A stretch of DNA of 64,000 nucleotides from Minisyncoccota bacterium. Lineage in GTDB: Bacteria; Patescibacteriota; Minisyncoccia; Phycocordibacterales; UBA5272. The position numbers and the translations under genes were made by a program. The stretch lies in NCBI GenBank assembly GCA_041651055.1, contig JBAZJW010000001.1, forward strand, positions 627,521 to 691,520, in the 5' to 3' direction. Every line of letters starts with the position of its first letter. Position 1 is the stretch's first letter. Under the pieces are notes generated by a model. That model was not told the DNA's origin. It ran no database searches and saw only the letters and a program-made list of their open reading frames with translations. Below are positions 1 to 33,591 of this stretch, piece by piece.

Positions 1-531
1 ACCAAGCGTTACGATGGTTTTGAGTTCATTAACTCACTTAAGGGAGGTGTAATTCCACAAGAATTCGTTCCTGCGGTAGAAAAGGGGCTTCGTGAATCTA
101 TGGATAGAGGAGCAGTTGCTGGATTCAAACTCGTAGACGTATCATGTGAAGTGTATGATGGATCTTTCCACGATGTCGACTCTTCAGAAATCGCCTTCAA
201 ATTGGCTGCCGGAATGGCTCTTTCTGATGCGCTCGCAAAAGCAAAGCCAGTTATCCTTGAACCAATCATGAGAGTGGAAATCGTTACGCCAGATAAGTTT
301 TATGGAGATATTACAGGAAACCTCTCATCAAAGCGTGGTCAAATCGAAGGAATGGATGAACGCGGTATGGATAAGGTTGTGAAAGCGCTTGTTCCATTGT
401 CAGAAATGTTCGGATATGTGAACTCACTCCGCTCAATGACAGAAGGACGTGCGACGTTTACGATGGAATTCGCAAAGTATGATGTGGTTCCACAGAATAT
501 TGCGAAGGAAATTGCGGAGAATAAGAAATAA
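1..531 (+). CDS. fusA: elongation factor G, C-terminal part (5' end lies outside the window)
   Basis: Frame-1 translation from nt 1 gives ...GFKLVDVSCEVYDGSFHDVDSSEIAFKLAAGMA...GRATFTMEFAKYDVVP, a conserved EF-G domain IV/V C-terminus; stop at 529-531. Confidence 0.9.
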   Translation, partial: TKRYDGFEFINSLKGGVIPQEFVPAVEKGLRESMDRGAVAGFKLVDVSCEVYDGSFHDVDSSEIAFKLAAGMALSDALAKAKPVILEPIMRVEIVTPDKFYGDITGNLSSKRGQIEGMDERGMDKVVKALVPLSEMFGYVNSLRSMTEGRATFTMEFAKYDVVPQNIAKEIAENKK

Positions 532-687: not shown

Positions 688-3600
688 ATGAAAAAATATA
701 TACTACCCGTGCTTTTATTGGCGTTGTCTTTTACAAGCGTTCAAGCACAGGCAGCGCCAACAACTTCTTCAAGTTGTACAGATCTTCCATATAACTTAGG
801 TTACGGATCTAATGATAGATATACACAAGGGGGTGTGACTCGTCTTCAGAATTTTCTTAATGCAAATGGTTTCTTGAAAGCACCCTCATCTGGATTTTTT
901 GGAAACGGAACAGTTTCTGCTGTGAAAGATTTTCAAGCAGCTAAAGGATTGAATCGTTCTGGGTATGTGGGGCAACAAACAAGAGATTTAATAAAGAGCA
1001 TGACATGTGGAGGTTCTGGGGTAGGTGCTACCTCCGGAGCTGTTTGGTCTACTTTTCTTGCAACACCAACTCTTGTCTCAACTTCTCCTGTATCTCAATT
1101 TGTAACAGGTGGTTCAAATTTCGGTATTGCAACATTTAGAGTTAGGACTGCACAATCAGGAGTACAGACGACAGTGAGAGAGCTACGCTTTTCTACAACA
1201 GGTACTGATGCAATTCAAAGCATTACTGTTGGTGGAATAACGGCTCCAGTTGTTGGTTCAGGTCTCGGTGCTACTACAACTATTTCAGGTCTCAACATTC
1301 CCGTTACTTCAAATGGTGCAGATATTCCTGTAACAGTGAAGTTTTCCGGATTTCAGAATACGACATCAGGAGGATTTCTTATTGCAGATGTTCCTGATGT
1401 AAAAGTAACCCTTGGTTATGTAGAGGCAGTAGATAGTACATCTGGTAGAGTTATTTACAATGCCTCAGCGGTTAGTTCAAATACTTTTACACTCGTTGCT
1501 TCAAAGCCTTCTGTAACAGTTGGTTCAGGCGGTCAGAATAGTCTTGTTCTTGGTGCTGAAAATAAAATAGGGGAGTTTACAGTGAGTGCTGACGCGAACG
1601 GGAAAATAGGCATGAGAACTTTAGTCCTATTACTTTCAACAATTGGAATCACAAATCCAAGCTTCTTGTCTCCAAGAATAACTGATGGAAATACAGTGGT
1701 AACGTTGTCTGATATATCTGTGTCAGGAGGTGGTACTGTAAACATAGCTTTCCCTTTTGCTTATGAAATACAAGCAGGGCAGTCAAAAACATTCTCACTT
1801 TACGCAACGGTGAAAGGTACTCAGACAAGTGGCACCATTGTGCCCTCTGTTAGTTCCCGATTTGCTCCAAGTAACTCTTTTGCTTGGACTGATATCTTGG
1901 GTGGGAACATACCACAAATGAGTGATAACATCCCAACGAATAGTTACACAACAAGTAGGAGTGGTTCAAGCGTTGCTGCTCCAACTGTTACCGCTTCAGA
2001 ACCAGTGATTAAAATAGAGGCTTCATCTGCAAATAAAACAAACAACTCAGCACTATCTGTAAACATCGGTGACACGTTTACTGTTTCAGGTGCCCCACAA
2101 AATATACAAGGATTGTCTTATTACAGTGGTAATGGATATCCAACGACAGGGTATTACAGTAGAGCTTTCTTCTTTGATCAAAACTTTGGTAACAATAATG
2201 TTTGCGGAAACAATGACGCTGCCACAAATGCGGTTTGGACAATGACATGTACAGCGAAAGTTTCTGGTTCAAGTAATTTCTACATAGAAATTTATGCAAA
2301 TGGTCAAGTATATAAATCAAATGTGGTTAATGTGACAGTGAATCCCTCCACCGCTGTTGTTACACCATCAACACCTATGGATCTTTCTGATACGACAATG
2401 TATGTCATGAGAATGTCGGCAGGATTAGTCCCTACGGATATGCGTTATGATATTGATGGTGACGGAAGAATCACATCTGCAGATGCAATTGCTTATTCTA
2501 AAGTAACTTCGATGCCAGATGTGGCGACATATAAAGATATTGCTAAATATGTTCTTAAGATGGCAGTAGGACTTTTCCCTAAAGATCTTAAGTATGACTT
2601 AAATAAGGACGGAAGAATTTCATCAGCCGATGCTTTGGCATATGAAAGATTAAGTATTCCAGTAGTTCCGACTGTTTCGCCAACAACACCTTCAGCTCAA
2701 ACACCATCCCCTGTAACATCTTATCCAACCCCAACGAATTCACCAACTGTTCCCACAACTCAAACACAGGTAATCCCTCAGTCTTCTCCAGTATCTACAC
2801 CGAGTGCGATGCCAGATCTTTATGGATACTATTACCTTGATTACAATGCCTCACGTAATGATCTAAACAGCCTTGCTTCATATACAAACTTTGGGTCTGC
2901 TCAATCCGTAGAACAAGTACCACTCCTTGTAAGTAAAGGGTTTAAGAATATTATGTATGTGGCTTTGATTTCTGATTCACTTCAAAAGTTACTTGCGAGT
3001 GAAGGCATTAATGCAAATGGGGGAGTAGGTTCAACGTATGATTTCAGAACTATTCCTAATTATGAAAGTAAAATGCTTGCGGTGTACAAGGAAGATTTGA
3101 TGGCATTGAAGAATAAACTTGCTGCAAATGGAACGCTTGGTAATGTTACGGTGTTCTTTACAGTGGACGAACCAGCACTACACAGAAACTATATCCCTAA
3201 TCAGGCTTTCTTGGAAAATGTAGAGAAGACTTTCAAGACAGTATTCCCAGATAAGAAATCAACAATGGCATTCGCAGAAGATCCTGCAAGCTCAGCATCA
3301 TTCCCATTCCGTGGAGCACATATGAATCCTCCTACTACACTTGATGTCGTAACAGTTGATCCGTATTTCTTTGGAAAGAATACTATTGGGTGTTCTCAGT
3401 CGGAAATAAAGAAATTCCTTTATACAGATAATCCAAATTCTACCATTGGATGGGCGAAGCAGTTCGGTAAGCCTGTCTATGTAGCGGCGGATGCAATGAT
3501 TATTAATGGTTCTGCACTACCAGAGTGTTATTACAAGGAAACATATAATATTGTTAAAGGTGACTCACAAATAAAAGGACTCATTTGGTTTATGTATGAT

Positions 3601-4263
3601 AGTTCATTTGGTGACGATGTTAGTAAAGGTACATCAGTAAATCCATCTTTAATTAATTTAATTAAAGGATTTACAACAGTGCCAACGGTCACCTTAAATA
3701 ATTTTGTTCCCTCTACTATTGAAGTAGGTAAGAATTCTATTATTTCATTCACTTCAACAAACGCGGACACATGTATCGGTACAGGAACAGGTCCAAATGG
3801 TCAGGCGTTATGGAATGGTAACTTAGGGGGAACATATACACCAGCAGGTGGGAAAAGTACCGCTAATCTATATCCATCAGGAATGAGTGCTGGTATCTAT
3901 TCACAAACAATTACATGTACGGGGCTTGGTGGATCAGCAACATCTGAAACAAAAGTGCTTACTGTTGTTCCAAAACTAACAATGGCAGCTGGTTCTTCAA
4001 ATTCTCGTGTTCTAGGTGCATATGCAACAGGGGTGTGTACAAATCTCCCATACAACATCCATCGTGGTAACGAGTCATCATCAACTCGTAACCTTCAGTC
4101 ATTCCTCATCACAAAAGGATTACTTGATGGTAATGCTACCGGCTTCTACGGAGATAAAACAGTAGAAGCAGTAAAAGCATATCAAGCATCAAATGACCTC
4201 CCAACTACAGGCATGGTCTACTCTTTCACACGAGAAGCTATACGAGCTGAAAGCTGCCAGTAA
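688..4263 (+). CDS. giant secreted cell-surface protein with N- and C-terminal PG-binding-like domains, Ig-like repeats, a dockerin-like module and a possible glycoside-hydrolase-like domain
   Basis: 1191-aa ORF. Signal peptide MKKYILPVLLLALSFTSVQAQA. N-terminal C...LQNFL..G.L....GFFG..T..AVKDFQ..KGL...GYVG..T domain ending in a Cys. Two 22-aa Ca-binding repeats YDIDGDGRITSADAIAY and YDLNKDGRISSADALAY. Pro/Thr-rich linker. C-terminal copy of the PG-binding-like domain ending AESCQ. Confidence 0.85.
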   Translation: MKKYILPVLLLALSFTSVQAQAAPTTSSSCTDLPYNLGYGSNDRYTQGGVTRLQNFLNANGFLKAPSSGFFGNGTVSAVKDFQAAKGLNRSGYVGQQTRDLIKSMTCGGSGVGATSGAVWSTFLATPTLVSTSPVSQFVTGGSNFGIATFRVRTAQSGVQTTVRELRFSTTGTDAIQSITVGGITAPVVGSGLGATTTISGLNIPVTSNGADIPVTVKFSGFQNTTSGGFLIADVPDVKVTLGYVEAVDSTSGRVIYNASAVSSNTFTLVASKPSVTVGSGGQNSLVLGAENKIGEFTVSADANGKIGMRTLVLLLSTIGITNPSFLSPRITDGNTVVTLSDISVSGGGTVNIAFPFAYEIQAGQSKTFSLYATVKGTQTSGTIVPSVSSRFAPSNSFAWTDILGGNIPQMSDNIPTNSYTTSRSGSSVAAPTVTASEPVIKIEASSANKTNNSALSVNIGDTFTVSGAPQNIQGLSYYSGNGYPTTGYYSRAFFFDQNFGNNNVCGNNDAATNAVWTMTCTAKVSGSSNFYIEIYANGQVYKSNVVNVTVNPSTAVVTPSTPMDLSDTTMYVMRMSAGLVPTDMRYDIDGDGRITSADAIAYSKVTSMPDVATYKDIAKYVLKMAVGLFPKDLKYDLNKDGRISSADALAYERLSIPVVPTVSPTTPSAQTPSPVTSYPTPTNSPTVPTTQTQVIPQSSPVSTPSAMPDLYGYYYLDYNASRNDLNSLASYTNFGSAQSVEQVPLLVSKGFKNIMYVALISDSLQKLLASEGINANGGVGSTYDFRTIPNYESKMLAVYKEDLMALKNKLAANGTLGNVTVFFTVDEPALHRNYIPNQAFLENVEKTFKTVFPDKKSTMAFAEDPASSASFPFRGAHMNPPTTLDVVTVDPYFFGKNTIGCSQSEIKKFLYTDNPNSTIGWAKQFGKPVYVAADAMIINGSALPECYYKETYNIVKGDSQIKGLIWFMYDSSFGDDVSKGTSVNPSLINLIKGFTTVPTVTLNNFVPSTIEVGKNSIISFTSTNADTCIGTGTGPNGQALWNGNLGGTYTPAGGKSTANLYPSGMSAGIYSQTITCTGLGGSATSETKVLTVVPKLTMAAGSSNSRVLGAYATGVCTNLPYNIHRGNESSSTRNLQSFLITKGLLDGNATGFYGDKTVEAVKAYQASNDLPTTGMVYSFTREAIRAESCQ

Positions 4264-4305
4264 CAGCTTAAAGCTAAAGGCTGGAAGCTAGAAGAAAATA
4301 CAGAG
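4205..4305 (+). repeat. ~100-nt segment identical to 11005-11105 (3' end and 3' flank of two paralogous surface-protein genes)
   Basis: Direct comparison of the two stretches ...ggcatggtctactctttcacacgagaagctatacgagctgaaagctgccagtaacagcttaaagctaaaggctggaagctagaagaaaatacag... Confidence 0.85.
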
Positions 4306-4335
4306 CGACCCCGAAGGGGTCGCTCTCTATTTTGC
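4303..4335 (+). terminator. rho-independent terminator
   Basis: AGAGCGACCCC-GAA-GGGGTCGCTCT hairpin followed by CTATTTTG. Confidence 0.7.
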
Positions 4336-4345
4336 CTTATCCCCA

Positions 4346-4351
4346 TATACT
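4346..4351 (+). promoter_or_regulatory. putative -10 (TATACT) within the conserved tatccccatatactaatcaaa upstream motif
   Basis: Motif shared with 7541-7563 upstream of the paralog at 7602. Confidence 0.3.
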
Positions 4352-4402
4352 AATCAAAAATTAGAAATAAGGAGTTATACTTACTTTATATTCTAATATC
4401 CT

Positions 4403-7400
4403 ATGAAAAAATATATACTACCTGTGCTTTTATTAGCGTTGTCTTTTACAAACGTTCAAGCACAGGCAGTGCCTACAACTTCTTCAAGTTGTACAGATCT
4501 TTCATATAACTTAGGGTATGGGTCTAATGATGGACGCACAAACGGAGAAGTCACCAAGCTTCAGACCTTTTTGAGTTCATTAGGTTACTTAAAAGATAAA
4601 CCTAATGGTTATTTTGGTAGGAGTACTTTTGGGGCTTTAAAAAGTTTTCAATTAAGCAAAGGTTTAACCAATTCTGGATATGCAGGACAGCAAACAAGGG
4701 GTGTGATTAAGAAGATGACGTGTGGTAGTATCCCGACTTCTTCTATGAATTCTTCGGACTTCAAGTTTCCCGATCAAACATCTGTACTAACAAAGTCCAG
4801 TGTGCTTCCCAAACTTGTAGTAAGTGGAACACAATCAAAACCAGGCCTCGTCTTGTGTGGTGATGGTGTAGTGGACAAACCGTCCATAGACGCTGGCCCC
4901 ATTCTCACAAGTTGTTTTCTGGCGAATAAAAATGCCGGAATTATTGAACTTTTACCTGGAAAGTATTATATAAAAAGTACTATTGATATCGGCAATCTTT
5001 CAAACATCACTATTAAAACAAAGGGTGTTTCTTCCGGGTCAGCCTGTTTACAGGTGGGTTCGGCACCATGTGCTGTTCTTTTTGCAACAGCAGATAATAA
5101 AGGGCCTGTGATTTTGAAGAGTGAGGGTGCTTCAAAGCTCAATCTTTTTTATATTGCGATTGATGGAAATCGTCTTGCAAGATGGTCGCCGGGCACTACT
5201 CCTAATTGGATAAAAAATAATGAGACTGATAAATATGGTACAGCTTACAATGCGGCAATTCGTTACTGTGATAAGTGTCATTTTACAGGGTTTGCATCGG
5301 TGCGTGCTCCAAAAGGGACAGGGTTAGAGTTTATCGGTGCTGATGCAGTTTTTGATACCACCTTGTTCAGTGATAATGGTTGGCAGTTGTCAGATTGGTT
5401 TTCGAGCAATCCAGAAGCAGGGGCTTTTGCTGATGGGTTAACAGCTCTTATTTCAGAACGTATTGTTATTCGTAATTCAGAATTTTCTAATAATTCAGAC
5501 ATAAATCTTATCTTGGGGGACGCACCAGGGGCAGTTATTGAGAATAATATAATAAAAAGTGATAATAAGTTTGTTTTTGCGGGACTTATGGTTGATAATT
5601 TTATGCGTATTAACAATGTAATCAAGGGTCGTTTTGACGGTACTGTTATTAGAAATAATACTATCAGTTGTGGTAATGGATTATGTGGAATTGGTATTGA
5701 TGTTGGTCCGTATCTTTGGTATGCAAAAAAAGGAGAAACTAATGTGGATGTTGAACGAGTAACTGGTGGAATAATTGCAAACAATACAGTTTTTGGAGCA
5801 CGTCAAGGTATTTTAGTTTCTGGGGCTTCGGGTACTACAATTAATAATAATACTGTTAATGTTGCTGGTACATTTAAGACACCTGTTGGTCATTATAAGA
5901 AATTGAATGATTATCAAACAAGAGAATGTGTTACAAACAGTATATCTGCTTCTCAAGGCGATACGGTAACTATTTCTGATAATAAAAATAGTCAAGGGCA
6001 AACTGTTGTTACTACTTCGAATGAACTACGTGAATGTCACCCGTATGATCTTTCGGATGCTGTTCTTGATCTTTCTGTTCCTACTATCCCACCAACCCCA
6101 ACAGCTGTAATAACTCCTACCGTCACAGCATCCTGGTCACCTTCTATCATTACATCAGGTCAAGCAGCCACACTCACATGGTCATCAACCAACGCAACCT
6201 ATTGTAATGTTTCTCACCCAAACAACACCAATACTTGGAACAATGCTCCAACGAGTCGCACCACCCCTTACTCAAGTGTTATTACATCAGACACTACAAC
6301 TGTTACGTGTTACAACTCTACAGGGCAGTCGGATTCTAAGACGGTAACATTAACGGTGAATCCGGTTATTCTACCAACCCCAACAGCTGTAATAACTCCT
6401 ACCGTCACAGCATCCTGGTCACCTTCTACCATTACATCAGGTCAAGCAGCCACACTCACATGGTCATCAACCAACGCAACCTATTGTAATGTTTCTCACC
6501 CGAACAATATTAATCCTTGGAACAATGCTCCAACGAGTCGCACCACCCCTTACTCAAGTGTTATTACATCAGACACTACAACCATTACGTGTTACAACCA
6601 AGCAGGGCAGTCGGATTCTGAGACTGTGACGTTGACGGTGAATCAGCCATCTTTTTGTACAGACTTTACATATTCTGATTATAGTCTTTGTCAGTCTGGT
6701 GGTATAAAAACAAGATCAGTTGTGTCTTCTTCTCCACAAGGATGCACTGGAGGGGTCCCTTTAACGTCTATTAGTTGTTCGTATGTTGTCAAGACAACTA
6801 AAGTAAATACTCTCTACAACATTTTTCTCCGCAGAAATTCTGATCCGTCAGGGGAGCTATCGTTTCAGAATCAACTTTCAAAGGGGGCTACTCTTGCTGA
6901 TGTAGCTTGGGTCCTTCTTACCTCTCCAGAAGGAATTGCTACTAACGGAGTCAATGTCCAGACCATGTCTGTTGATTCTTATGTTGAGTTTCTTTACACA
7001 GCAGTTTTGAAGCGTCCTTCAGACGTAGAAGGTAAAAGATATTGGGTTGCTACTGTTAACGCAGGAGTGACGCGTAAGTCAGCCCTTAGTTCTTTTCTTG
7101 ATTCCCCGGAATCAAAAATAACTAACTCAAATCTTTTCCTTTCATATAATTTACAAAATTCTTCATCTATTTCGGTTGACGATAAAAGTATCCCAACTGT
7201 GCTTGGTGATTATATATCCGTACCTTCGTGTATCAATCTTCCACAAAACCTTCATCGCGGAGCAGAATCTTCGTTAGTTAGGCTCCTCCAGTCATTCCTT
7301 ATTGCAAAAGGATTGCTTGCTGGTAATGCAACCGGTTTCTACGGAGACAAAACAGTAGAAGCAGTAAAAGCATATCAGTCTTCTGTGAACCTCCCAGCTA

Positions 7401-7456
7401 CTGGTATGGTGTATGACTTTACTCGTAACGCTATTAAGGTAGAGAGTTGTCAGTAA
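4403..7456 (+). CDS. giant secreted surface protein: PG-binding-like N- and C-terminal domains, right-handed beta-helix (pectate-lyase-like) repeats, two tandem Ig-like repeats, DUF4214-like segment
   Basis: 1017-aa ORF. Signal peptide MKKYILPVLLLALSFTNVQAQA; first ~130 nt nearly identical to 688-820. NN(T/I)I..N/G-rich parallel beta-helix repeats (NNTISCGNGLCGIGIDVG). LYNIFLRRNSDPSGELSFQNQL resembles DUF4214. C-terminal LQSFLIAKGLLAGNATGFYGDKTVEAVKAYQ domain. Confidence 0.85.
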   Translation: MKKYILPVLLLALSFTNVQAQAVPTTSSSCTDLSYNLGYGSNDGRTNGEVTKLQTFLSSLGYLKDKPNGYFGRSTFGALKSFQLSKGLTNSGYAGQQTRGVIKKMTCGSIPTSSMNSSDFKFPDQTSVLTKSSVLPKLVVSGTQSKPGLVLCGDGVVDKPSIDAGPILTSCFLANKNAGIIELLPGKYYIKSTIDIGNLSNITIKTKGVSSGSACLQVGSAPCAVLFATADNKGPVILKSEGASKLNLFYIAIDGNRLARWSPGTTPNWIKNNETDKYGTAYNAAIRYCDKCHFTGFASVRAPKGTGLEFIGADAVFDTTLFSDNGWQLSDWFSSNPEAGAFADGLTALISERIVIRNSEFSNNSDINLILGDAPGAVIENNIIKSDNKFVFAGLMVDNFMRINNVIKGRFDGTVIRNNTISCGNGLCGIGIDVGPYLWYAKKGETNVDVERVTGGIIANNTVFGARQGILVSGASGTTINNNTVNVAGTFKTPVGHYKKLNDYQTRECVTNSISASQGDTVTISDNKNSQGQTVVTTSNELRECHPYDLSDAVLDLSVPTIPPTPTAVITPTVTASWSPSIITSGQAATLTWSSTNATYCNVSHPNNTNTWNNAPTSRTTPYSSVITSDTTTVTCYNSTGQSDSKTVTLTVNPVILPTPTAVITPTVTASWSPSTITSGQAATLTWSSTNATYCNVSHPNNINPWNNAPTSRTTPYSSVITSDTTTITCYNQAGQSDSETVTLTVNQPSFCTDFTYSDYSLCQSGGIKTRSVVSSSPQGCTGGVPLTSISCSYVVKTTKVNTLYNIFLRRNSDPSGELSFQNQLSKGATLADVAWVLLTSPEGIATNGVNVQTMSVDSYVEFLYTAVLKRPSDVEGKRYWVATVNAGVTRKSALSSFLDSPESKITNSNLFLSYNLQNSSSISVDDKSIPTVLGDYISVPSCINLPQNLHRGAESSLVRLLQSFLIAKGLLAGNATGFYGDKTVEAVKAYQSSVNLPATGMVYDFTRNAIKVESCQ
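6092..6655 (+). repeat. tandem duplication of a 282-nt (94-aa) Ig-like domain unit inside the 4403-7456 CDS
   Basis: ccaaccccaacagctgtaataactcctaccgtcacagcatcctggtcacc... occurs at 6092 and again at 6374 with about 95% identity. Confidence 0.9.
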
Positions 7457-7513
7457 TAGGCTGTAGTTAATAGGTTTTGGTTGATGTGATACGAAATACA
7501 GAAAATATGAAAA

Positions 7514-7538
7514 GTGGCCACAAAGTGGCCGCTTTTTG
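7514..7538 (+). terminator. rho-independent terminator
   Basis: GGCCAC-AAA-GTGGCC hairpin followed by GCTTTTTGTG. Confidence 0.55.
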
Positions 7539-7553
7539 TGCCCCTATCCCCAT

Positions 7554-7559
7554 ATAATA
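7554..7559 (+). promoter_or_regulatory. putative -10 (TATAAT) in the conserved tatccccatataataatcaaa motif
   Basis: TATAAT 43 nt upstream of the ATG at 7602; ggaaggggg SD-like at 7573-7581. Confidence 0.35.
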
Positions 7560-7601
7560 ATCAAATAATGAAAGGAAGGGGGTATACTTAACTCATATCC
7601 T

Positions 7602-10600
7602 ATGAAAAAATATATTCTATCCACTCTTTTATTCGCCATATATCTTGGGTTTACAGGGGCTGAAATTGCATCAGCTGTAACGTCTTCTTATTCCATAGCT
7701 CCAGACGTAAACGTACCAGTAGTAACACTCTCTTCAAATGGAAAAAATGTTGTAAATGGTAGCACGGTTTTGATTTCTGATCGTAATGAAGCTACTCTGT
7801 CTTGGACAAGTGTGGGGGCAACGTCGTGTACCTTAAATGGTGTGGCTATACCAACTTCAGGTTCACAGTTATTTAGTAATTTCAAGATTGATTTTGGTTA
7901 TGCTGGTAACATTTTTAGTTGTACAAATGGATTTAAAAGTTCAAGGATACTATTTGACACACTCGGCCGGTCTACTAATGTAGAATCTATAAATATTAGA
8001 GTGATTCCACAATCTACATATGATGTGCGACCAGGAGAACCTGCTCAAATTGCTATCGAGGGTCAGGGTTTTAGCTCATGTACATTAGAATCTGAAGGGG
8101 CTCTTATTAAACTTGTCGAGCCATCAACTAATACAGTACACATAACGCCAGCCCTACAAAAAAATACAACATTCAAAGTTACTTGTACTAGGGGTGAATA
8201 TACTAAAGTTAAGGAGTTTACCATCGAGGTAATTCCAATTAATCCAGTTAAGTCAAAAACTTGCCCATTAGGACAAATCTATTATAGTGCTGAACCGGCC
8301 ATGGTTAATGGTACATATAATAGAGCTTATTTAGGGTGTGCCGAAGCCAAACCTTTTACATGTCTAGATGGATCCACTGTTTACACTAAGATTTTCGATA
8401 AAAGTTCTTCGTTCGCAATAAACGCTCAAGCGTGCTCATATCCAAATGTTACTGACAGTGCTTTATTCGTTAAGGTGGGAGAGGGGGAATATATAGATAG
8501 TCAAACAGAAGGAGTCGCTAATATCACCATTCCTGACAGTGCAAGCGGTAAAATTCTCGTGCTTTATAGTGATAATCCTGTGCATTGGATAATTGCCAAC
8601 CCAAATCATGTTCTCATTAAAAAAATACTTATCTTAGAATTAGAAAGTGGTCTAAATACTCAGCGTGCTGATGGGGATATTCAAAACATACCTCTAGAAA
8701 AGATAAAACTAGGTGGTCGTTTTGGGAATATTACTACTAACTTATTAGGAGGGTTCTATGGGGAGTTATCAGATGAGGTAAATACTTTTTTTAAAAATTC
8801 AGGAAATGATATCAGAGCTCTTATTGTTAGTCTTCTTAAACAAGGTATTTCTTTATCTCCTTACGACTACTATTATGCAAGCAGAGCAAGTGCTTTACCT
8901 GTTGGGGTATCTCCATCACCTACACTGTACACAAAGAAACAGAGTGAAATAGATGCAAAGAAAGCAGAAGAAGATGCAAAGAAAAAAGCAGCAGATGCTG
9001 CAATTGATCGTTTCTGGTTAGGATATAAATTTGCTTCTGGACTTAGTTTTCATAGTTATGTATACGAAAATAAAAATGTTTCAAATGATGCGATATTACA
9101 AAATAGCTATTTTTACTCAGCTGGACCTAGTCCTGTGCCTACGACAAAAGCAGAAGCGATCACTCGATGCAAGGATGACATATTGAGTAAAGTCGGCCAA
9201 GTAGCTCAATGTAAATGGAATGGAGAAGTCTTTGCTTCTTCAACTAATCCTTTACCTATGATGGATAACAAGCTTCTTTTTCCAAGTGGCGCATACAGTG
9301 AATATGATGGGTCTACGCTTATTTACTCTAAGCCTTCAATCTCTGCTATTAATGCAAAAGTTTTCTGTGACATGAGTAAGACCGTCCATCCAAATATTAA
9401 GTGTACTTTTGACGGAATTGATACATCGACACTAGATTTCGCTCGAAAAACTCCTGGATTTTTGCAGATATATGGAGATAGGTTTAGTGGATATTCTAAA
9501 TTTTTTAACTCTTTTGCTACTGGTAATGAAGGGTATAGTGCTGAAAATGACTGTATGCATTACTATACGTATCAGAAGCTTGGCTACATTATGCAAGAAC
9601 CCATTTTTACGGGGAGGTCACCAGAGAAGTACAATATAGAAAACTTTGACAAATCAAAAGCAAATGCTTTAAGAATGGCTTGTTATTGGAATGGACACTA
9701 CTTCTTTTCTTCGCCGGCAAATTACGACCCACTTAATAAACTACCTGAAAGTCTTCCCTCAATATCTTTGCCAGGAACATCATTGTTACGGGAAAGTGCG
9801 CCCTTTGTTGAGGTTAAAGCAAATAAAGGAACAATTCAACTTGGTGAATCTGTGACATTAAACTGGAACAGCATGTACACTGATTCTTGTTCTGCAAGCG
9901 GTGCTTGGAGCGGGGAATTAAGTACTTCTAGCAGTATTCGATCTGGATCTATTACTAAAACCCCAACAGCTCTTGGTGAACAAAAATATATTATTTCTTG
10001 TGCTGGGGTTGGAGGAACAGCAAGACATAGTGTGACTGTGAATGTGATATCTCAAAACGAAGTAAGTTCGTCGAATCAAACGAATACCCTTACACAGAAC
10101 ACTTCTGGTGAACGACTTATCACATCGTTAACTGCAAATCCTTCTACTATTTTTGGAAAAGGTACGACCACAATTACATTTACTTCATCTGGTACGGATT
10201 CTTGCTATATTGGAAATACCCGTTTATCGACTTCGGGAGCATACGTTACTCCTGTGCTTACTTATAATCCATCTTACTCTCCTTCGGTTATTTTTACACT
10301 TAAATGTTTTAAGGGTGAAAGTATGACTTCTAGAAATATATCAATCCTCGTCTCTTCTACTTCTTCTCCTTCTGCTGTATTACCAGCAGGTTGTACTTCT
10401 TCAACAATGTATAGTCCAACGACAGGGGTTCGTTGTCTTGCCACCTTAGCAACTACCCCTGTATGTAACTCAGAGCAGTATCTTGAAAACGGTGTTTGTA
10501 AGAATCTGACTCGTATTTGCCCTGATGGAAGAGTTATATCTGCCATGCTTAGTTGTGGTACATCAACGGTAAGCACTACTGCCACATCAAGTCTTTTGGT

Positions 10601-11063
10601 GTATCGTCAGTATTATGGACCCTCATTACAACAGCAAAGATCAAGAGTAACTAGATCTACAGCTATAAGTCTTTGTGCTGCTCGAGTACGTGCAATACAG
10701 GGACGAAAGACTTCTGGACTTACGACATACAACGATGTATCAAAGATACGATGCACCTGGGGAACAGAACAGCTTTACCCACTCAGGACTTCATCTTTAT
10801 CAGAAGGGTCTCTTGTCCTTGGTTCTTCGACAGTCTGTACCAGCCTCCCATACAACCTTCATCGTGGAGCTGAATCTCCATCAGTAGTTTCTCTTCAGAC
10901 ATTTCTTTCCTCTAAAGGATTCCTAGAAGGAGAAGCTACCGGTTTCTACGGAGACAAAACGGTAGAAGCAGTAAAAGCATATCAATCATCGGTAAATCTC
11001 CCAGCTACAGGAATGGTCTACTCTTTCACACGAGAAGCTATACGAGCTGAAAGCTGCCAGTAA
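7602..11063 (+). CDS. giant secreted surface protein with Ig-like repeats and C-terminal PG-binding-like domain
   Basis: 1153-aa ORF. Signal peptide MKKYILSTLLFAIYLGFTGAEIASA. Several L.W.S....C...G Ig-like units. Last ~75 aa almost identical to the C-terminus of the 688-4263 protein (…GMVYSFTREAIRAESCQ). Confidence 0.85.
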   Translation: MKKYILSTLLFAIYLGFTGAEIASAVTSSYSIAPDVNVPVVTLSSNGKNVVNGSTVLISDRNEATLSWTSVGATSCTLNGVAIPTSGSQLFSNFKIDFGYAGNIFSCTNGFKSSRILFDTLGRSTNVESINIRVIPQSTYDVRPGEPAQIAIEGQGFSSCTLESEGALIKLVEPSTNTVHITPALQKNTTFKVTCTRGEYTKVKEFTIEVIPINPVKSKTCPLGQIYYSAEPAMVNGTYNRAYLGCAEAKPFTCLDGSTVYTKIFDKSSSFAINAQACSYPNVTDSALFVKVGEGEYIDSQTEGVANITIPDSASGKILVLYSDNPVHWIIANPNHVLIKKILILELESGLNTQRADGDIQNIPLEKIKLGGRFGNITTNLLGGFYGELSDEVNTFFKNSGNDIRALIVSLLKQGISLSPYDYYYASRASALPVGVSPSPTLYTKKQSEIDAKKAEEDAKKKAADAAIDRFWLGYKFASGLSFHSYVYENKNVSNDAILQNSYFYSAGPSPVPTTKAEAITRCKDDILSKVGQVAQCKWNGEVFASSTNPLPMMDNKLLFPSGAYSEYDGSTLIYSKPSISAINAKVFCDMSKTVHPNIKCTFDGIDTSTLDFARKTPGFLQIYGDRFSGYSKFFNSFATGNEGYSAENDCMHYYTYQKLGYIMQEPIFTGRSPEKYNIENFDKSKANALRMACYWNGHYFFSSPANYDPLNKLPESLPSISLPGTSLLRESAPFVEVKANKGTIQLGESVTLNWNSMYTDSCSASGAWSGELSTSSSIRSGSITKTPTALGEQKYIISCAGVGGTARHSVTVNVISQNEVSSSNQTNTLTQNTSGERLITSLTANPSTIFGKGTTTITFTSSGTDSCYIGNTRLSTSGAYVTPVLTYNPSYSPSVIFTLKCFKGESMTSRNISILVSSTSSPSAVLPAGCTSSTMYSPTTGVRCLATLATTPVCNSEQYLENGVCKNLTRICPDGRVISAMLSCGTSTVSTTATSSLLVYRQYYGPSLQQQRSRVTRSTAISLCAARVRAIQGRKTSGLTTYNDVSKIRCTWGTEQLYPLRTSSLSEGSLVLGSSTVCTSLPYNLHRGAESPSVVSLQTFLSSKGFLEGEATGFYGDKTVEAVKAYQSSVNLPATGMVYSFTREAIRAESCQ

Positions 11064-11114
11064 CAGCTTAAAGCTAAAGGCTGGAAGCTAGAAGAAAATA
11101 CAGAAAATAAATAC

Positions 11115-11149
11115 AAAGAGCGGCCACTTCGTGGCCGCTCTTTGTTTTT
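11115..11149 (+). terminator. rho-independent terminator
   Basis: AAAGAGCGGCCAC-TTC-GTGGCCGCTCTTTGTTTTT. Confidence 0.75.
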
Positions 11150-11211
11150 ACTGACCTACATGATAGAGTGATTTCTTGTGTGGTAGTTCTTTTAATTGGA
11201 GGTTTAACAAG

Positions 11212-11784
11212 ATGAATAAAAGTCCTCAAGAGGCAGCTCCTCGTAAAGTGGTAGAGTACCATCAATACTTGAAAGCTGTCCAACTGTATGTCGAGGATTT
11301 CGGTGTCTCTGCCCTTAAAGATCTCGTGGAAGATACACGGGATGTTTTGGCGGGAATTGATAGAGAGAAAACTCGTATCAAACGCGAAATTTGGAAGGAA
11401 ACGAAACAGACGTTGGTGTACCAGCTTGCTACACATGGCACAGTGTCCGTGATATCCCTTGATACGCCTGCATATGGGGGAGATGATGATGTCTCTCTTG
11501 CAGAATTAGTTCCGAGCGATGCCCGGTCTCCTCACGTGTCAGTGCTGCACAAAGAAATGGCAGCACTCGTCAACATCACGCTTGAAAAAGGTGATTTCAA
11601 GAAAAGAGAGAGGTTGGTATTGAGGATGCGCTACGGCATCGGCTGTGAGGAACAAACGCTTGAAATCATCGGTGCTCTGTTCGGAATAACTCGAGAAAGG
11701 GTACGACAAATTGAAGTGAAAGCTCTTAAGAAAGCAAAGCGGGTTCTTGCTTCCTATAAGGTGTACGTAGAACATGTTCTTTGA
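11212..11784 (+). CDS. sigma-70 family protein fragment (regions 3-4 only; no region 2)
   Basis: GGAGG RBS at 11199-11203, then ATG. SLDTPAYGGDDDVSLAELVPSD resembles the region 3-4 linker of primary sigmas. LVLRMRYGIGCEEQTLEIIGALFGITRERVRQIEVKALKKAKR is a region-4.2 HTH. No -10-binding region 2 and no upstream coding potential. Confidence 0.7.
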   Translation: MNKSPQEAAPRKVVEYHQYLKAVQLYVEDFGVSALKDLVEDTRDVLAGIDREKTRIKREIWKETKQTLVYQLATHGTVSVISLDTPAYGGDDDVSLAELVPSDARSPHVSVLHKEMAALVNITLEKGDFKKRERLVLRMRYGIGCEEQTLEIIGALFGITRERVRQIEVKALKKAKRVLASYKVYVEHVL

Positions 11785-11850
11785 AAGGGTGCATGCACAA
11801 CAAAAAGGTTGCGCGGCACCCTTTTTGTTTTTACATGGTACACTTTTTAT

Positions 11851-13244: not shown

Positions 13245-14438
13245 ATGGCAGCAGAATTTGATCGCTCAAAACCACACGTAAACGTAGGAACAATTGGTCA
13301 CGTTGACCACGGAAAGACAACCCTTACAGCAGGTATCCTTAACGTACTTCACCTAATGGACCAAACCATTAAGATTAAAGGTATTGAAGAAATTGACAAG
13401 GCCCCTGAAGAAAAGGCTCGTGGTATTACTATTTCTCTTTCACACAGTGAATATTGGACAGCTAATCGTCACTACGCTCACATCGATGCTCCTGGTCACG
13501 CTGACTACATCAAGAACATGATTACTGGTGCAGCTCAGATGGATGGTGCTATTCTCGTGGTAGCAGCAACTGACGGACCTATGCCACAAACTCGTGAACA
13601 CATCCTCCTAGCCAAGCAGGTGGGTGTACCTCGAATGGTAGTATTCCTCAACAAGTGCGATATGGTTGATGATCCAGATATGATTGAACTCGTTGAAGAA
13701 GAAATTCGTGAACTCCTTACAAAGCAAGGCTTTGATGGTGCTAATACACCTATTATCCGTGGTTCAGGTCTCAAGGCTTCTGAAGCAACTGATATCAATG
13801 ATCCATGGGCACAGAAGATTGTTGAGCTCATGACTGCTCTCGATACATACATCGAAGTTCCAGAACGTGATATTACAAAGCCATTCCTTATGCCTGTTGA
13901 AGACATCTTCACTATCGAAGGACGCGGTACTGTGGTAACAGGACGTATTGAACGTGGAGTTGTTAAGATTAACGAAGAAATCGAAATCGTTGGTCTTAAG
14001 GATACGGTTAAGACAGTGGTTACGGGTATTGAAATGTTCAACAAATCACTTCCTGAAGGACGAGCTGGAGACAACGCTGGTATTCTTATTCGTGGAATCA
14101 AGAAGGAAGATATTATGCGTGGACAGGTTCTCGCTAAGCCTGGGAGCGTGAAGCCTCACACAGACTTCGAATGTGAAGTATACATTCTTAAGAAAGAAGA
14201 AGGTGGACGTCACACTCCATTCCTAAATGGTTACAAGCCACAGTTCTACGTACGTACAACTGACGTTACTGGTGAAGTTACACTTCCAGCAGGAACTGAA
14301 ATGGTTATGCCAGGGGACACTATCAAGTTTACGGTTAAGCTTCTCGCACCTATCGCTCTTGAAGAGCAGGGACGTTTTGCTATCCGTGAAGGAGGTAAGA
14401 CAGTTGGAGCCGGAGTGGTAACAAAGATAATTGCATAA
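13245..14438 (+). CDS. tuf: elongation factor Tu
   Basis: [55 protein letters not shown] motifs; 397 aa. Confidence 0.97.
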
Positions 14439-22634: not shown

Positions 22635-24032
22635 ATGAAAACAGTAATTATCAAAGGCTTTGTAGCATTGGGGGTTTTGGGGATTATGGCTCAAACAGCA
22701 ACATCATCGTTTGCTGCGTATTTCAACACGGATTCAATTCCTCGTTGCGATGTTCAAATTATCAATACATTACAAGTTGGTTCTGAAAGTAAAGAGGTAT
22801 ACGTTCTTCAGTCGCTTCTTTCACGAGCAGGATACCTTTATGCAACACCAAATGGTTATTTTGGTTTTGCGACAAAGTCTGCCGTTAAAAGTTTCCAGCG
22901 AGACAACGGTGTATATGCCACCGGTTCTGTTGGTCCAATGACCTTAAATGCAATAAACGAGCGTCTTTGTGATGCTGATGTACGAGGAGACATGCTTTCA
23001 TACACTGGTTATGGATATTCTTCATACAACGGCTATTCATCAGGCGTTACGTACGTTGATGCTTTCGATCCATACGTTCGCGTCGTCTCTCCGACTCCTG
23101 CAGTCGCTACCGTATTCGGTAATCCTCCTACAACCACAACGCCTGGAACATTTACTCCTTCAGGAACGGTTCCGGTTTCTATTCCTGCACTCACAACAGG
23201 GACATATTCAAACACCACAAATTACTCAACAATTCCTGCTACCACAAATACACAGATTGCTAGTACGAATGTCATTTACAATCCTTCAGCTGGATACACC
23301 TACGGTATCGTTCCACAGTCTGGTGTATTGACTATTCTTACACCACTTGCAAACAGTGTTTACAATGAAGGTGACACTGTGACACTCTCATGGACAACAA
23401 GTAATCTTACGGTTACACAGTACCAGATTCTTCTTGAAAATAAATCAACAAATCAGTCAAAGGTTGTTGCTGTTACGTCGACAAAGAGCGCATCATTTGT
23501 TCTTACAAAAGAAGTTCTTGATGCCGTATGTTCTGGAGCGTGTGATAACAATAACGTCGGATCCTTCCGCATCGTTATTGCGACACCTATTGTTGATATA
23601 GCGGGAACTGTATCTACATTCCGTGCTGCTATTTCACCGATTACGATTAACCGTCCATATACGACATTTGCCAATGTAGGAATCACAGGAAGTAAAAACC
23701 CTGTTAATTCCGGAGAAGCTTTTAGACTCTATGTAAGTGTGCCAACACCTGTGTACAATTACACACCAAGTTACAATCAGTATTCATTCAAGATTCGTGC
23801 TGTATGCATCAACAATGTTCAGGTGAGTATTGCAGGTGTGCCATGTGGTCAGGATTTTACAATGCCTGTCACATCAGCATATTTCCAGCAAGAAATTCCT
23901 GTTATGATGACGAACACAACATGGTATCGTCAGAATATTTCCTTCGAAATTAATGCCTTCACTTCTACAGGGCAACTCGTAGGTACTGCAAGTACAACAG
24001 TAAGTGTTAACCCTGCACCATTTGCTTGGTAA
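22635..24032 (+). CDS. secreted protein with N-terminal PG-binding-like domain; inserted between rplE and rpsN
   Basis: Signal peptide MKTVIIKGFVALGVLGIMAQTATSSFA; C.VQIINTLQVGSESKEVYVLQSLLSRAGYLYATPNGYFGFATKSAVKSFQRDNGV...C. Confidence 0.75.
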   Translation: MKTVIIKGFVALGVLGIMAQTATSSFAAYFNTDSIPRCDVQIINTLQVGSESKEVYVLQSLLSRAGYLYATPNGYFGFATKSAVKSFQRDNGVYATGSVGPMTLNAINERLCDADVRGDMLSYTGYGYSSYNGYSSGVTYVDAFDPYVRVVSPTPAVATVFGNPPTTTTPGTFTPSGTVPVSIPALTTGTYSNTTNYSTIPATTNTQIASTNVIYNPSAGYTYGIVPQSGVLTILTPLANSVYNEGDTVTLSWTTSNLTVTQYQILLENKSTNQSKVVAVTSTKSASFVLTKEVLDAVCSGACDNNNVGSFRIVIATPIVDIAGTVSTFRAAISPITINRPYTTFANVGITGSKNPVNSGEAFRLYVSVPTPVYNYTPSYNQYSFKIRAVCINNVQVSIAGVPCGQDFTMPVTSAYFQQEIPVMMTNTTWYRQNISFEINAFTSTGQLVGTASTTVSVNPAPFAW

Positions 24033-30870: not shown

Positions 30871-33591
30871 ATGAACACTCCGTTTACTACCCCCGAAGAA
30901 GAAATCAGTTTTCTTCGCTCACAAATTAAAGATAAAGTAGAAAAGGCAAAAGGCTTCGAAGGTCGCTTCACCGAGAAAGATCATGCACACGAAGTGGTAC
31001 GTGATTATCGCGAACTTCCTTTAGAAAAAGTAGTGGCACCGATAGCACAGGTTACAGCAGGTGAAACACATCGACTTCTCGAATGGCTCACTCCGCGAGA
31101 TACGGATGCGCAAGTACAAATGCTTTCACAGGTTATGGCAGACAAAGGAATAAAGAATGCATTTGTTATGGCAGAAAAGATGAATGATCCGCAGCTCGAA
31201 GATGACTTCGAGCGCTTTGTTGTGCAGTATCTTGTTTCAGGACATGAAATAAGAAACAATCTTTCCAAAGATGTATGGAAAGCTCTTCATATGAAGTTGT
31301 TTGAAATTGTGCTTCCAGATGCACAAGAAGGGCAAGGAAAACAGGCCAAAGAAATGATGGCGCTAATGGAACAATGGTATGCCTCGATGCAAGCGCTTGC
31401 GAGTGATGTGCTCAACAAAGAGAAGAATTATTATTCACTAGAGCTTGCGGTGGCGAATGGTTCCACGACAGCATCATTTTATTGTGCGGTGCATATCGAT
31501 TACGCGGCACTGTTTGAAAAGGTGGTACTCGGTGTATTTCCACAGGCCCAAGTCAGAGAACAGAAAGATGACTATAATATTTTCCATGCTCATGCGATCA
31601 CAGCAGCATCATACGCGACACATAGCACGCATCCGGCACTTCCTATCAAGACCTATGAGACCATGGAGGCTGATCCGATGGCACTTATCATTTCTTCCTT
31701 CACACGAATTGTAAAAGAAAATGAAGGACTTGCTCTCCAGGTGTTGGTGCGTCCAGCGGGGGATGTTTTCGCGAAGCGTTTTGGTGAAATGTTGGAAGAC
31801 TTACGTAAAGGGGAAACGCTCAAGCGTGTACTCGACAAGCAAAGCATACTTAAAGAGTCTCTCCATATTCTTGGTTTGATGTTTGAATCAACGAAAACAA
31901 AAGAAGAGATTGAAAAGAAAAAAGCAGAAGGAACGACCTTCGTGGATGAAAGCGCCCTCAAGCATGTACAAACAAAACTTTCAAAGACAATCATCGAAAC
32001 AAATATTCGTATTGTTGCTTCGGCGACGAGTTTGGTGCGGGCACAAGCGATACGCACCGATCTCGAGGCTGCTTTCTCACAGTTCACAGAAGTCGGAGGA
32101 AACAGCGTCATCTGGAAAGAAGTAGAGGGGCGTAAGCAGAAGGCGATGCTTCACCGCTTTTCATATCGTTTATGGAATGAAGACGAAAGTTATCCACTTA
32201 ACCTTGCTGAAATTGCTTCTGTTTTTCATTTCCCTTCACAGTCAAAAGATGTGGCCAATGTTCGTTCTTCCTCAGCCGCTACTGCACAAGCTCCATCTGA
32301 TATGCCTGCCGATGGAATTGTTCTCGGAATCAATAAATCCAGAGGTCAAGAACAAACTATACATTTTGGACGTGAAGATCGTATGCGTCACATGTATGTT
32401 ATCGGTCAGACGGGTACAGGAAAGACCGTGTTCATGAAGAATTTGATTATTCAGGATATAAAAAACGGCGACGGTTGTTGTTTCATTGACCCGCACGGAA
32501 ATGATATCCAAGATATTTTGGCGAACATTCCTCCAGAACGAGCGCAAGACGTTATTTATTTTGACCCAGCATATATGGCACGTCCAATGGGGCTCAACAT
32601 GCTTGAGTATGATAGGAATTACCCAGAACAAAAGACATTCGTCGTGAATGAACTCTTGGGAATATTCGATAAGCTGTTCGACATGCGAGCAACAGGGGGA
32701 CCAGGATTCGAGCAGTACTTTCGTAACGCGACATTACTCGTGATGGAGCATCCTGAAAGTGGTAACACGCTCCTTGATATTTCTCGTGTCTTTTCAGATA
32801 AAGATTATCGTGACTACAAACTTTCGAAATGTAAGAATCCACTCCTTGTACAGTTTTGGCAAAATGCAGAGAAGACAACAGGTGATCAAGGGCTTCAAAA
32901 TTGGACTCAGTACGTAAATAGTAAATTTGATGTCTTTATGTCAAACGACATTATGCGGCCAATTATTGCTCAAGAAAAGAGCGCCTTTAATTTCCGCGAC
33001 ATAATGGATAGTAAGAAAATCTTTTTGGTGAATCTTTCAAAGGGTCGTCTCGGGGATAAGAATGCAAGTTTACTCGGTCTTATTATTGTGGGAAAGTTTT
33101 CACAGGCAGCCCTCTCTCGCGTGGATATGTTCGGGAAACCGATGAATGATTTTTATTTGTACATTGATGAATTCCACAACGTCACCACAAACGCAATCGC
33201 CACCATTCTCTCTGAAGCCAGAAAATATCGTCTCTCACTTACTATCGCGCATCAGTACATTGGACAGTTGGAAGAAAGTATTAAGGGAGCAGTGTTTGGT
33301 AACGTGGGTACTATGGCTATATTCCGTGTTGGAACAGATGATGCGAAGTATTTGGAAACACAGTTTACGCCAACATTCACGTCAAACGATATTATGAAAA
33401 TAGAAAACTACCATGCGTATCTCAAGATGCTTGTCCGAGGTGAACCAAAAAAGCCTTTTGATATTGTCGCCCTTCCACCCCAAATAGGGGATGTATCACG
33501 TATCGATTCATTGAAAGAGTTGAGTTATTTGACGTACGGGCGACCGGCGGAAGAAGTTAACTCAGAGATTATGAAAAAATACTCTCTTTAA
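30871..33591 (+). CDS. large P-loop NTPase of the TraD/TraG/VirD4-HerA-FtsK-like superfamily with a ~480-aa N-terminal domain of unknown function
   Basis: Walker A MYVIGQTGTGKTVFMKN; Walker B LYIDEFHN; ARKYRLSLTIAHQYIGQL motif typical of TraG-D_C / HerA-like ATPases; no N-terminal TM segments. Confidence 0.6.
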   Translation: MNTPFTTPEEEISFLRSQIKDKVEKAKGFEGRFTEKDHAHEVVRDYRELPLEKVVAPIAQVTAGETHRLLEWLTPRDTDAQVQMLSQVMADKGIKNAFVMAEKMNDPQLEDDFERFVVQYLVSGHEIRNNLSKDVWKALHMKLFEIVLPDAQEGQGKQAKEMMALMEQWYASMQALASDVLNKEKNYYSLELAVANGSTTASFYCAVHIDYAALFEKVVLGVFPQAQVREQKDDYNIFHAHAITAASYATHSTHPALPIKTYETMEADPMALIISSFTRIVKENEGLALQVLVRPAGDVFAKRFGEMLEDLRKGETLKRVLDKQSILKESLHILGLMFESTKTKEEIEKKKAEGTTFVDESALKHVQTKLSKTIIETNIRIVASATSLVRAQAIRTDLEAAFSQFTEVGGNSVIWKEVEGRKQKAMLHRFSYRLWNEDESYPLNLAEIASVFHFPSQSKDVANVRSSSAATAQAPSDMPADGIVLGINKSRGQEQTIHFGREDRMRHMYVIGQTGTGKTVFMKNLIIQDIKNGDGCCFIDPHGNDIQDILANIPPERAQDVIYFDPAYMARPMGLNMLEYDRNYPEQKTFVVNELLGIFDKLFDMRATGGPGFEQYFRNATLLVMEHPESGNTLLDISRVFSDKDYRDYKLSKCKNPLLVQFWQNAEKTTGDQGLQNWTQYVNSKFDVFMSNDIMRPIIAQEKSAFNFRDIMDSKKIFLVNLSKGRLGDKNASLLGLIIVGKFSQAALSRVDMFGKPMNDFYLYIDEFHNVTTNAIATILSEARKYRLSLTIAHQYIGQLEESIKGAVFGNVGTMAIFRVGTDDAKYLETQFTPTFTSNDIMKIENYHAYLKMLVRGEPKKPFDIVALPPQIGDVSRIDSLKELSYLTYGRPAEEVNSEIMKKYSL

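Follow-up and report, generated by a model that had tools for sequence, protein, structure and literature searches.

A free-standing sigma region 3.2–4 protein encoded in the fusA–tuf interval of a Paceibacteria genome

The half sigma gene and its product

In this work we analysed a gene that lies between fusA and tuf in a 64-kb stretch of contig JBAZJW010000001.1 (hereafter the window), which belongs to a metagenome-assembled genome of Candidatus Paceibacterota. The open reading frame (ORF), at 11212–11784(+), starts with an ATG, has an intact frame and encodes a protein of 190 amino acids (aa) that carries the region 3.2 linker and region 4 of sigma-70 factors and no region 2; we call it here the half sigma. 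The exact protein is present in NCBI as MFA5132332.1 (775,158-bp contig), under the name 'sigma factor-like helix-turn-helix DNA-binding protein'. The order of genes in the window is fusA, three PG_binding_1 genes, half sigma, a fourth PG_binding_1 gene and tuf (Table 1). A preliminary description had presented the gene as embedded in a surface-protein array, and four of the six PG_binding_1 genes of the window do surround it.

Upstream coding stops at 11063, the end of a 1153-aa PG_binding_1 protein, and an in-frame stop codon is present at 11164–11166, so that an N-terminal extension is limited to at most 12 codons, from a TTG. The upstream 150 nt hold an intrinsic terminator, as had been described, and no coding sequence, either in frame or frameshifted, that could supply a region 2. 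A pseudogene of rpoD or a split rpoD at the locus was rejected on these grounds, there being no upstream frame, and because the family is conserved (dN/dS, the ratio of non-synonymous to synonymous rates, 0.03–0.12; see below). Strong terminators flank the gene on both sides, and half sigma is therefore a monocistronic unit in the window genome. Promoters were called as consensus matches, read from the sequence: a TTGnnn-N16/17-TAGAGT match is common to five loci at the same upstream position (TAGAAT in L011), and GGAGG lies 5–7 nt before the aligned start in three of four homologous loci, with AAGGA in L011. The gene has a GC content of 0.46 (0.43 at third codon positions, GC3) and resembles core genes, so that horizontal acquisition is not indicated by base composition.

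Sigma70_r4 is the only Pfam domain of the protein (residues 131–174, E 8.2e-14, 51 bits against a cut-off of 24), and the sequence GITRERVRQIEVKALKKAK at residues 158–176 is the region 4.2 helix-turn-helix (HTH), in agreement with the preliminary description. The NCBIfam RpoD, RpoS and SigA models match residues ~77–178, through region 3.2 and region 4 only, with scores far under their full-length cut-offs, and of a profile built from 21 full-length sigmas only C-terminal positions align with the ORF (161–282; no match extends outside 136–282). The hidden Markov model check that had been recommended was run on five members of the half sigma family: Sigma70_r4 was found in all five, Sigma70_r3 weakly in two (E 0.015), and Sigma70_r2 in none, even at E≤1, which confirms the absence of region 2. 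Searches for a region-2 ORF covered the window, which is 64 kb of its source contig, and homologous loci. Among the ORFs of the window, counted from stop to stop with a minimum of 50 aa, none carries a region 2 by comparison with full-length sigmas or with the 21-sigma profile, and half sigma is the sole ORF matched by either; no region-2 ORF was found in the homologous loci L011–L014, L003, L004, L239 and L241, or in the gene list of the 76-kb contig of family member P0139 within 10 kb on either side.

In the AlphaFold2 (AF2) model of the protein (predicted local distance difference test score, pLDDT, 84.7), N-terminal helices are predicted at residues 16–30, 32–65 and 68–74 (pLDDT 81–95 across residues 11–70), and the best structural matches of the model are primary sigmas (RpoD and SigA chains, 150–187 alignment columns). 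For the N-terminal domain, colinearity with sigma region 3.0/3.1 emerges only in alignments anchored by the remainder of the protein, and the registers are inconsistent. The earlier label 'regions 3–4' can thus be kept for region 3.2 and region 4, which are significant, whereas residues 1–78 alone resemble no sigma region; the protein appears best described as sigma-3-like by position, and as homologous to sigma factors in region 3.2 and region 4. A cryptic region 2 in this domain, similar to that of extracytoplasmic function (ECF) sigmas, was also considered on the basis of motifs that look similar by eye, and rejected, because the profile–profile comparison was empty and the anchored alignments all place the domain colinear with region 3.

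With respect to sigma classes, the protein has a domain 4 HTH with -35 contact residues and a region 3.2 finger, and domain 2 is absent. It scores below the cut-off of the ECF (group 4) model TIGR02937 (34.8 vs 42.9, residues 54–178 on model positions 76–164); its size fits that group (~170–200 aa), but it has no sigma-2 similarity and its linker is of the group 1 region 3.2 type. Sigma70_r4 as the sole significant domain fits the generic 'sigma factor-like HTH DNA-binding protein' name given by the Prokaryotic Genome Annotation Pipeline (PGAP), which is a naming class and not a functional family. This generic name, partial sigma-70 homologues and frequent phage ORFs limited to regions 3.2–4 were all known already.

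Table 1. Features of the half sigma locus and of the window.
Feature	Coordinates	Strand	Basis or remark
Half sigma coding sequence, 190 aa	11212-11784	+	MFA5132332.1; Pfam, NCBIfam
Predicted sigma-A-type promoter: -35 TTGTTT 11142-11147, 16-nt spacer, -10 TAGAGT 11164-11169	11142-11169	+	consensus match
Shine-Dalgarno GGAGG, 9 nt 5' of ATG	11198-11202	+	sequence
Family-specific helical N-terminal domain, residues 1-78	11212-11445	+	AF2 model; sigma-3-like by position only
Region 3.2 'sigma finger' linker, residues 79-110, SLDTPAYGGDDDVSLAELVPSD	11446-11541	+	aligned to sigma-70 505-530
Region 4.1-4.2 HTH, residues 128-178	11593-11745	+	
Recognition helix TRERVRQIE	11689-11715	+	
Intrinsic terminator closing the upstream surface-protein gene; 15-bp GC-rich stem and T-run	11113-11150 (hairpin 11113-11145)	+	-29.1 kcal/mol, z about -8.9
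Intrinsic terminator 3' of half sigma, then U-tract	11783-11832	+	-24.2 kcal/mol, z -4.3
fusA (elongation factor G, EF-G) 3' end, left island border	1-531	+	88-96% identical to EF-G C-termini of related loci
Three paralogous large secreted PG_binding_1 proteins, own terminator each	688-4263, 4403-7456, 7602-11063	+	Pfam, repeat modules
Shared repeat modules of the large PG_binding_1 genes	573-612, 687-880, 4033-4437, 7226-7636, 10833-11149		
Secreted PG_binding_1 and IPT/TIG-like protein, 390 aa	11851-13023	+	Pfam
tuf (elongation factor Tu, EF-Tu), right island border, then S10 operon	13245-14438	+	
Further PG_binding_1 protein, 465 aa, in ribosomal-protein region upstream of secY	22635-24032		
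Further PG_binding_1 protein, 1075 aa	42310-45537		

The half sigma family and its island

The family was searched for exhaustively with HMMER among 1.84 billion representative proteins, and by word-indexed searches of 5.8 billion clusters. Six clusters have the full architecture (P0001, P0002, P0139, P0142, P0155 and P0285; 187–202 aa, 26–56% identical), and family scores drop sharply from 180 to 101 bits, where ordinary sigmas start. Twenty positions are invariant in the family. They include S82, P86 and D93, which correspond to S506, P510 and D516 of the sigma-70 region 3.2 finger, the equivalents of R554, V558, R562, G564 and I565 in region 4.1, and those of T583, E585, R586, R588, Q589 and E591 in region 4.2, the -35 recognition helix. 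Half sigma resembles the C-terminal half of primary (group 1) sigma-70 factors in its region 4 (40–47% identity), its TRERVRQIE helix, which is the same, its (V)LRMR(F/Y)GI 4.1 motif and its SL(D/E)xP...D finger; it differs from these factors in having no regions 1.1, 1.2 and 2, in its 78 family-specific N-terminal residues, in its size of 190 aa, and in being non-essential and patchily distributed. Region-4 identity is no higher within the family (0.46) than to Escherichia coli sigma-70 (0.47), and outside the sigma-functional core the whole family sequence has diverged.

Strain variants of P0002 show 8–9 synonymous and 1–3 non-synonymous changes, a dN/dS of 0.03–0.12 that rests on ~11 substitutions. 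The conserved architecture, the invariant residues at sigma-functional positions, the promoter and ribosome-binding site and the low dN/dS together argue that half sigma is a functional gene under purifying selection and not a pseudogene. The comparison of orthologous loci that the preliminary description had called for thus yields a six-cluster family of the same length and architecture, and so not a decaying remnant of rpoD. No family member was found in IMG/VR, no family locus was found in metagenome contigs by a search with the N-terminal alignment, and no description of the family was found in the literature searched. Specific to the family are the 78-aa N-terminal domain, the strict retention of finger and -35 residues, the fusA–tuf location and the patchy distribution in a narrow Paceibacteria clade.

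Half sigma is in the fusA–tuf interval in every family member for which the upstream flank was recovered; the P0002 contigs start just upstream of half sigma, where fusA is not confirmable, and all homologous contigs but one are ≤5.3 kb. The gene order is fusA, a 176-aa ORF, DUF378, PG_binding_1, half sigma and tuf in P0139, fusA, half sigma and PG_binding_1 in P0155, fusA, half sigma, a 358-aa ORF, DUF378 and PG_binding_1 in P0142, and fusA, half sigma and tuf in P0285. One lineage, represented by locus L014, has half sigma directly between fusA and tuf, with no surface gene.

The clade was then sampled through its characteristic fusA 3' end, which gave 20 further loci, and none of the 20 carries half sigma or any sigma-like ORF. 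Several of the relatives without half sigma are nearer to the window organism by EF-Tu identity (96.2% for L223, 95.7% for L229, 94.7% for L225 and 93.7% for L234) than is L014, which carries the gene (91.7%). The cargo of the interval across L219–L238 consists of DUF378, PG_binding_1 or MGMT-like genes, or of a Phd/YefM-type toxin–antitoxin pair with an IS30-like ORF, or the interval is empty; PG_binding_1 genes are often present there in relatives devoid of half sigma. In this Paceibacteria clade the stretch between fusA and tuf, which falls within the str/S10 operon region, the best conserved of these genomes, is thus a variable island and a hotspot where surface-protein genes and other accessory genes are carried. 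Half sigma is therefore patchy island cargo, a rare accessory gene of a few Paceibacteria lineages, and this accessory distribution makes a split housekeeping sigma unlikely. Within the island, the half sigma genes of L003 and L241 differ at 11 nucleotides and the adjoining PG_binding_1 genes are identical, a pattern that suggests between-strain recombination.

An ordinary rpoD adjoins dnaG in Parcubacteria, and in one of them, GW2011_GWA1_45_7 (L018 3008–4380, LCLC01000041.1), rpoD is annotated downstream of dnaG as two ORFs, regions 1.2 and 2 followed by regions 3 and 4. This apparent split was rejected as such, being due to a frameshift in region 2.3; it most probably reflects an error in sequencing or a pseudogene of recent origin, and not a true split sigma.

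Possible modes of action

Binding to the beta-prime clamp helices and melting of the -10 element both require sigma domain 2. An isolated domain 4 is able to bind -35 DNA as well as the beta flap, and region 3.2 lies in the RNA exit channel. Lacking domain 2, half sigma should be unable to bind the clamp helices or to melt a -10 element alone. We tentatively propose, as the likeliest of the explanations considered although with less than even confidence, that it binds -35-type DNA and core polymerase and modulates -35-dependent initiation as a competitor or mimic. Half sigma would read TTGnnn-type -35 DNA via domain 4 and, in the manner of the C-terminal half of sigma-A, would contact core RNA polymerase at two sites, the beta flap and the RNA exit channel. 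On its own it would be a competitor or a mimic of that half, and its effect on -35-dependent initiation would most likely be to dampen or redirect it, rather than to act as a self-sufficient sigma. In support of this proposal, the residues kept in the family are those of the primary-sigma finger and of -35 reading, which argues that half sigma may still work on or with RNA polymerase. It is doubtful, although conceivable, that the free-standing module occupies the flap and exit-channel sites and, by mimicry of the C-terminal half of sigma-A, plugs the polymerase or retargets it, or else that it makes up a two-piece sigma together with an unlinked region-2 protein. The idea that goes with it, of a natural 'half sigma' class to which phage proteins limited to regions 3.2–4 would in principle also belong, and which would here be kept as optional cargo in a genomic hotspot of an ultra-small bacterium of the candidate phyla radiation (CPR), is to be regarded with the same doubt.

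Several observations weigh against the competitor or mimic proposal. For docking at the flap and exit channel, the argument is the conservation of residues. One might expect harm to the cell from a free domain 4 that carries a housekeeping-type helix and is expressed from a good promoter, a cost for which the proposal does not account. Compared alone with the full-length sigma profile, residues 1–78 give nothing (hhalign probability 0.3%), and the domain that they form cannot be equated with sigma domain 3 with any certainty. An unlinked region-2 partner could exist beyond the window and the homologous loci, which the search for region 2 covered. Finally, a ~370-aa PG_binding_1 neighbour is kept in four of the six lineages, and the two genes overlap by 4 nt in the gene calls of L004–L008; a local regulatory link could exist.

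Proteins named 'sigma factor-like HTH' abound in databases of annotated genes but have hardly ever been the subject of study, and this family offers a clean case for a sigma without domain 2. If polymerase docking is true, half sigma would be an instance of mimicry-based tuning of initiation, which would bear on the many similar phage proteins, and it would be one more regulator in CPR bacteria, in which transcription factors are, to our knowledge, sparse and unstudied.

The alternative that survives best, although we consider it unlikely, is that half sigma is a plain transcription factor, with a sigma-4 HTH that binds DNA and N-terminal helices that oligomerise, acting on its own promoter and/or on the ~370-aa PG_binding_1 gene with no polymerase docking; it would then be a routine lineage-specific factor. 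The main argument against it is the conserved finger: such a regulator would have no reason to keep one, and the invariant S82, P86 and D93 would have no role there. Furthermore, half sigma has the very recognition helix of housekeeping sigmas instead of a specialised one, and in the window a strong terminator separates half sigma from the downstream gene. The distribution of the two genes is also at odds with this alternative: relatives keep PG_binding_1 genes in the island without half sigma, and L014 has the opposite arrangement. The preliminary description had suggested that half sigma may regulate the adjacent adhesin genes. Half sigma is a resident of the island, PG_binding_1 genes exist without it in closer relatives and it exists without them in L014, and two further PG_binding_1 genes of the window are located away from the island (at 22635 and 42310); a dedicated adhesin regulator is therefore undercut, so that this part of the description is not supported, and half sigma is probably not a dedicated local switch.

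A second alternative is a two-subunit sigma. The sigO and rsoA genes of Bacillus subtilis are adjacent, and SigO (YvrI) is said, from work by MacLellan et al. in 2009, to bind the beta flap and read the -35 element and to be incapable of melting DNA. In SigO–RsoA the functions of a sigma are split over two polypeptides, which provides a precedent for sigma-2 and sigma-4 on separate polypeptides (PMC7826278). By analogy, half sigma would read the -35 element and contact the flap, and an unlinked region-2 protein would bind the clamp helices, melt the -10 element and contact the N-terminal domain. Like SigO, half sigma has a region 4 and no functional region 2; a finger and a region 4 kept without region 2 are what such a subunit needs, and the N-terminal domain, which is conserved in the family and resembles no sigma region when compared alone, could be the interface with the partner. 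We nevertheless regard a two-subunit sigma as improbable. No region-2-like ORF is present in the window, in the gene list around half sigma in P0139 or in the short homologous loci, so that, unlike in SigO–RsoA, there is no nearby partner in any of the six half sigma contexts; in L014 half sigma stands alone between fusA and tuf, and a patchy island gene would need a partner that travels along with it. In addition, the recognition helix of half sigma is of the housekeeping type and not specialised.

A third alternative is a decoy, which would mimic sigma-A regions 3.2–4 and soak up phage anti-sigma or appropriation factors, or a cellular anti-sigma, in the way that the sigma-like domain of PhyR titrates NepR. 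The variable island elsewhere holds a toxin–antitoxin pair with an insertion sequence-like ORF, and the patchy distribution and the high divergence outside the core (26–38% identity for most pairs, compared with >90% for EF-Tu) are compatible with a decoy, as is the observation that phages of many kinds encode similar proteins limited to regions 3.2–4. MzaA, a defence-system-associated sigma, is the second-best NCBIfam match and the sole PADLOC match of half sigma, in region 4 only. These matches do not make half sigma an MzaA: the former reaches 67 bits against a cut-off of 800, at the region-4 end only, and the latter (39.7 bits, residues 116–177) merely reflects a generic region 4. MzaA is a ~700-aa protein with adjoining Mza genes, half sigma has 190 aa, and no Mza gene adjoins it in the window. 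We judge the decoy distinctly improbable, given that there are no adjacent defence genes and that the low strain-level dN/dS shows no sign of diversifying selection. Unlike PhyR, the sigma mimic of the general stress response, half sigma has no receiver domain and its DNA-contact residues are invariant and not degenerate. The 390-aa protein encoded downstream was considered as a possible anti-sigma and rejected, as it has a signal peptide alone before PG_binding_1 and no cytoplasmic domain.

The last alternative is a relic without function, left by a sigma gene that was duplicated or came from a phage, and still open by chance. It would fit a rare and patchy gene with low identity between lineages, and is very improbable, as an open frame of 187–202 aa is kept in six lineages, the position of the predicted promoter is conserved in five loci, each with a Shine-Dalgarno match for the aligned start, the invariant residues fall where sigma function resides, and neutrality predicts a ~3:1 excess of non-synonymous changes instead of the 8–9 synonymous vs 1–3 non-synonymous changes observed.

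Among the closest known counterparts of half sigma are the phage proteins limited to regions 3.2–4 (for instance P0311, and members of phrog_351), which are likewise small complete ORFs with a finger and a region 4, no region 2 and a similar pattern in the C-terminal tail. P0311 has 132 aa and is encoded in a phage replication module; it is phage-borne, whereas half sigma is chromosomal. These phage proteins have no 78-aa N-terminal domain, and no IMG/VR match covers residues 1–31 of the query. Complete small proteins with a sigma region 4 and no region 2 were noted on two phage contigs: that of L009 (10001–10774) has 257 aa and an extra N-terminal HTH-like segment, and that of L015 (4679–5077) has 132 aa, carries the region 3.2 finger as well, and is encoded among genes of replication and nucleotide metabolism.

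The motif 'GIGC' was rejected as a phage signature, because Bacteroidales primary sigmas have it too. When genome contigs were scanned for the pattern GI[GD]C-N14-TRERxRQ, Bacteroidales rpoD was among the matches listed; the primary sigmas of these bacteria (286–308 aa; L099–L178, for instance L112 1177–2052(-) and L102 5898–7907) share the YGIGC turn between 4.1 and 4.2 with the half sigma family, and some Bacteroidales genomes have two tandem copies of the gene. A further protein, P0041 (309 aa, from the Joint Genome Institute, JGI, on a 996-bp contig), consists of two near-identical tandem copies of sigma regions 3–4 and probably stems from misassembly of a short, repeated contig.

Partial sigmas have been catalogued in cyanobacteria, where sigma-70 homologues lack region 2 or region 4 and where their role as polymerase subunits has been questioned (PMC11119718). 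Half sigma also misses an essential domain; unlike them, it belongs to another phylum, with homology limited to the common domains, and the cyanobacterial study is a domain census, without context or mechanism (PMC11119718). With the sigma-4-like YlxM/p13 proteins (UPF0122, ffh operon) half sigma has only the fold in common; both region 3.2 and the recognition helix of primary sigmas are absent from YlxM.

Surface-protein neighbours and other observations

The orthologue of the 390-aa protein adjoins half sigma in four of the six lineages, and the window protein is 35–39% identical over its full length to the neighbours in L003 and L013; in the P0139 contig it is upstream of half sigma and not downstream. 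The three large PG_binding_1 genes are island cargo, and their dependence on half sigma is not supported. They are paralogues that share duplicated modules (D1, D3–D7), namely a leader with signal peptide, and a C-terminal PG_binding_1 module with its 3' untranslated region and terminator. The second of them contains in addition a ~280-nt tandem duplication with 93% identical copies (6085–6644).

The sequence TATCCCCA is found just 5' of each of these large surface genes (628–635, 4338–4345 and 7545–7552), and six copies are present in the window compared with 1.1 expected. It abuts a TATAAT or TATACT in two of the large surface genes and is 11 nt further upstream in the third, and the promoters linked to it have no recognisable -35. 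It may be a regulatory site or merely a part of the duplicated leader. As evidence for a half sigma regulon it was rejected, because it sits in the leaders of duplicated paralogues and is absent at half sigma and its neighbour.

Elsewhere in the window, a 906-aa protein encoded at 30871–33591 has a weak match to T4SS-DNA_transf, the type IV secretion coupling protein family (E 8e-6), and FtsK and RecA genes are located near it on the opposite strand.

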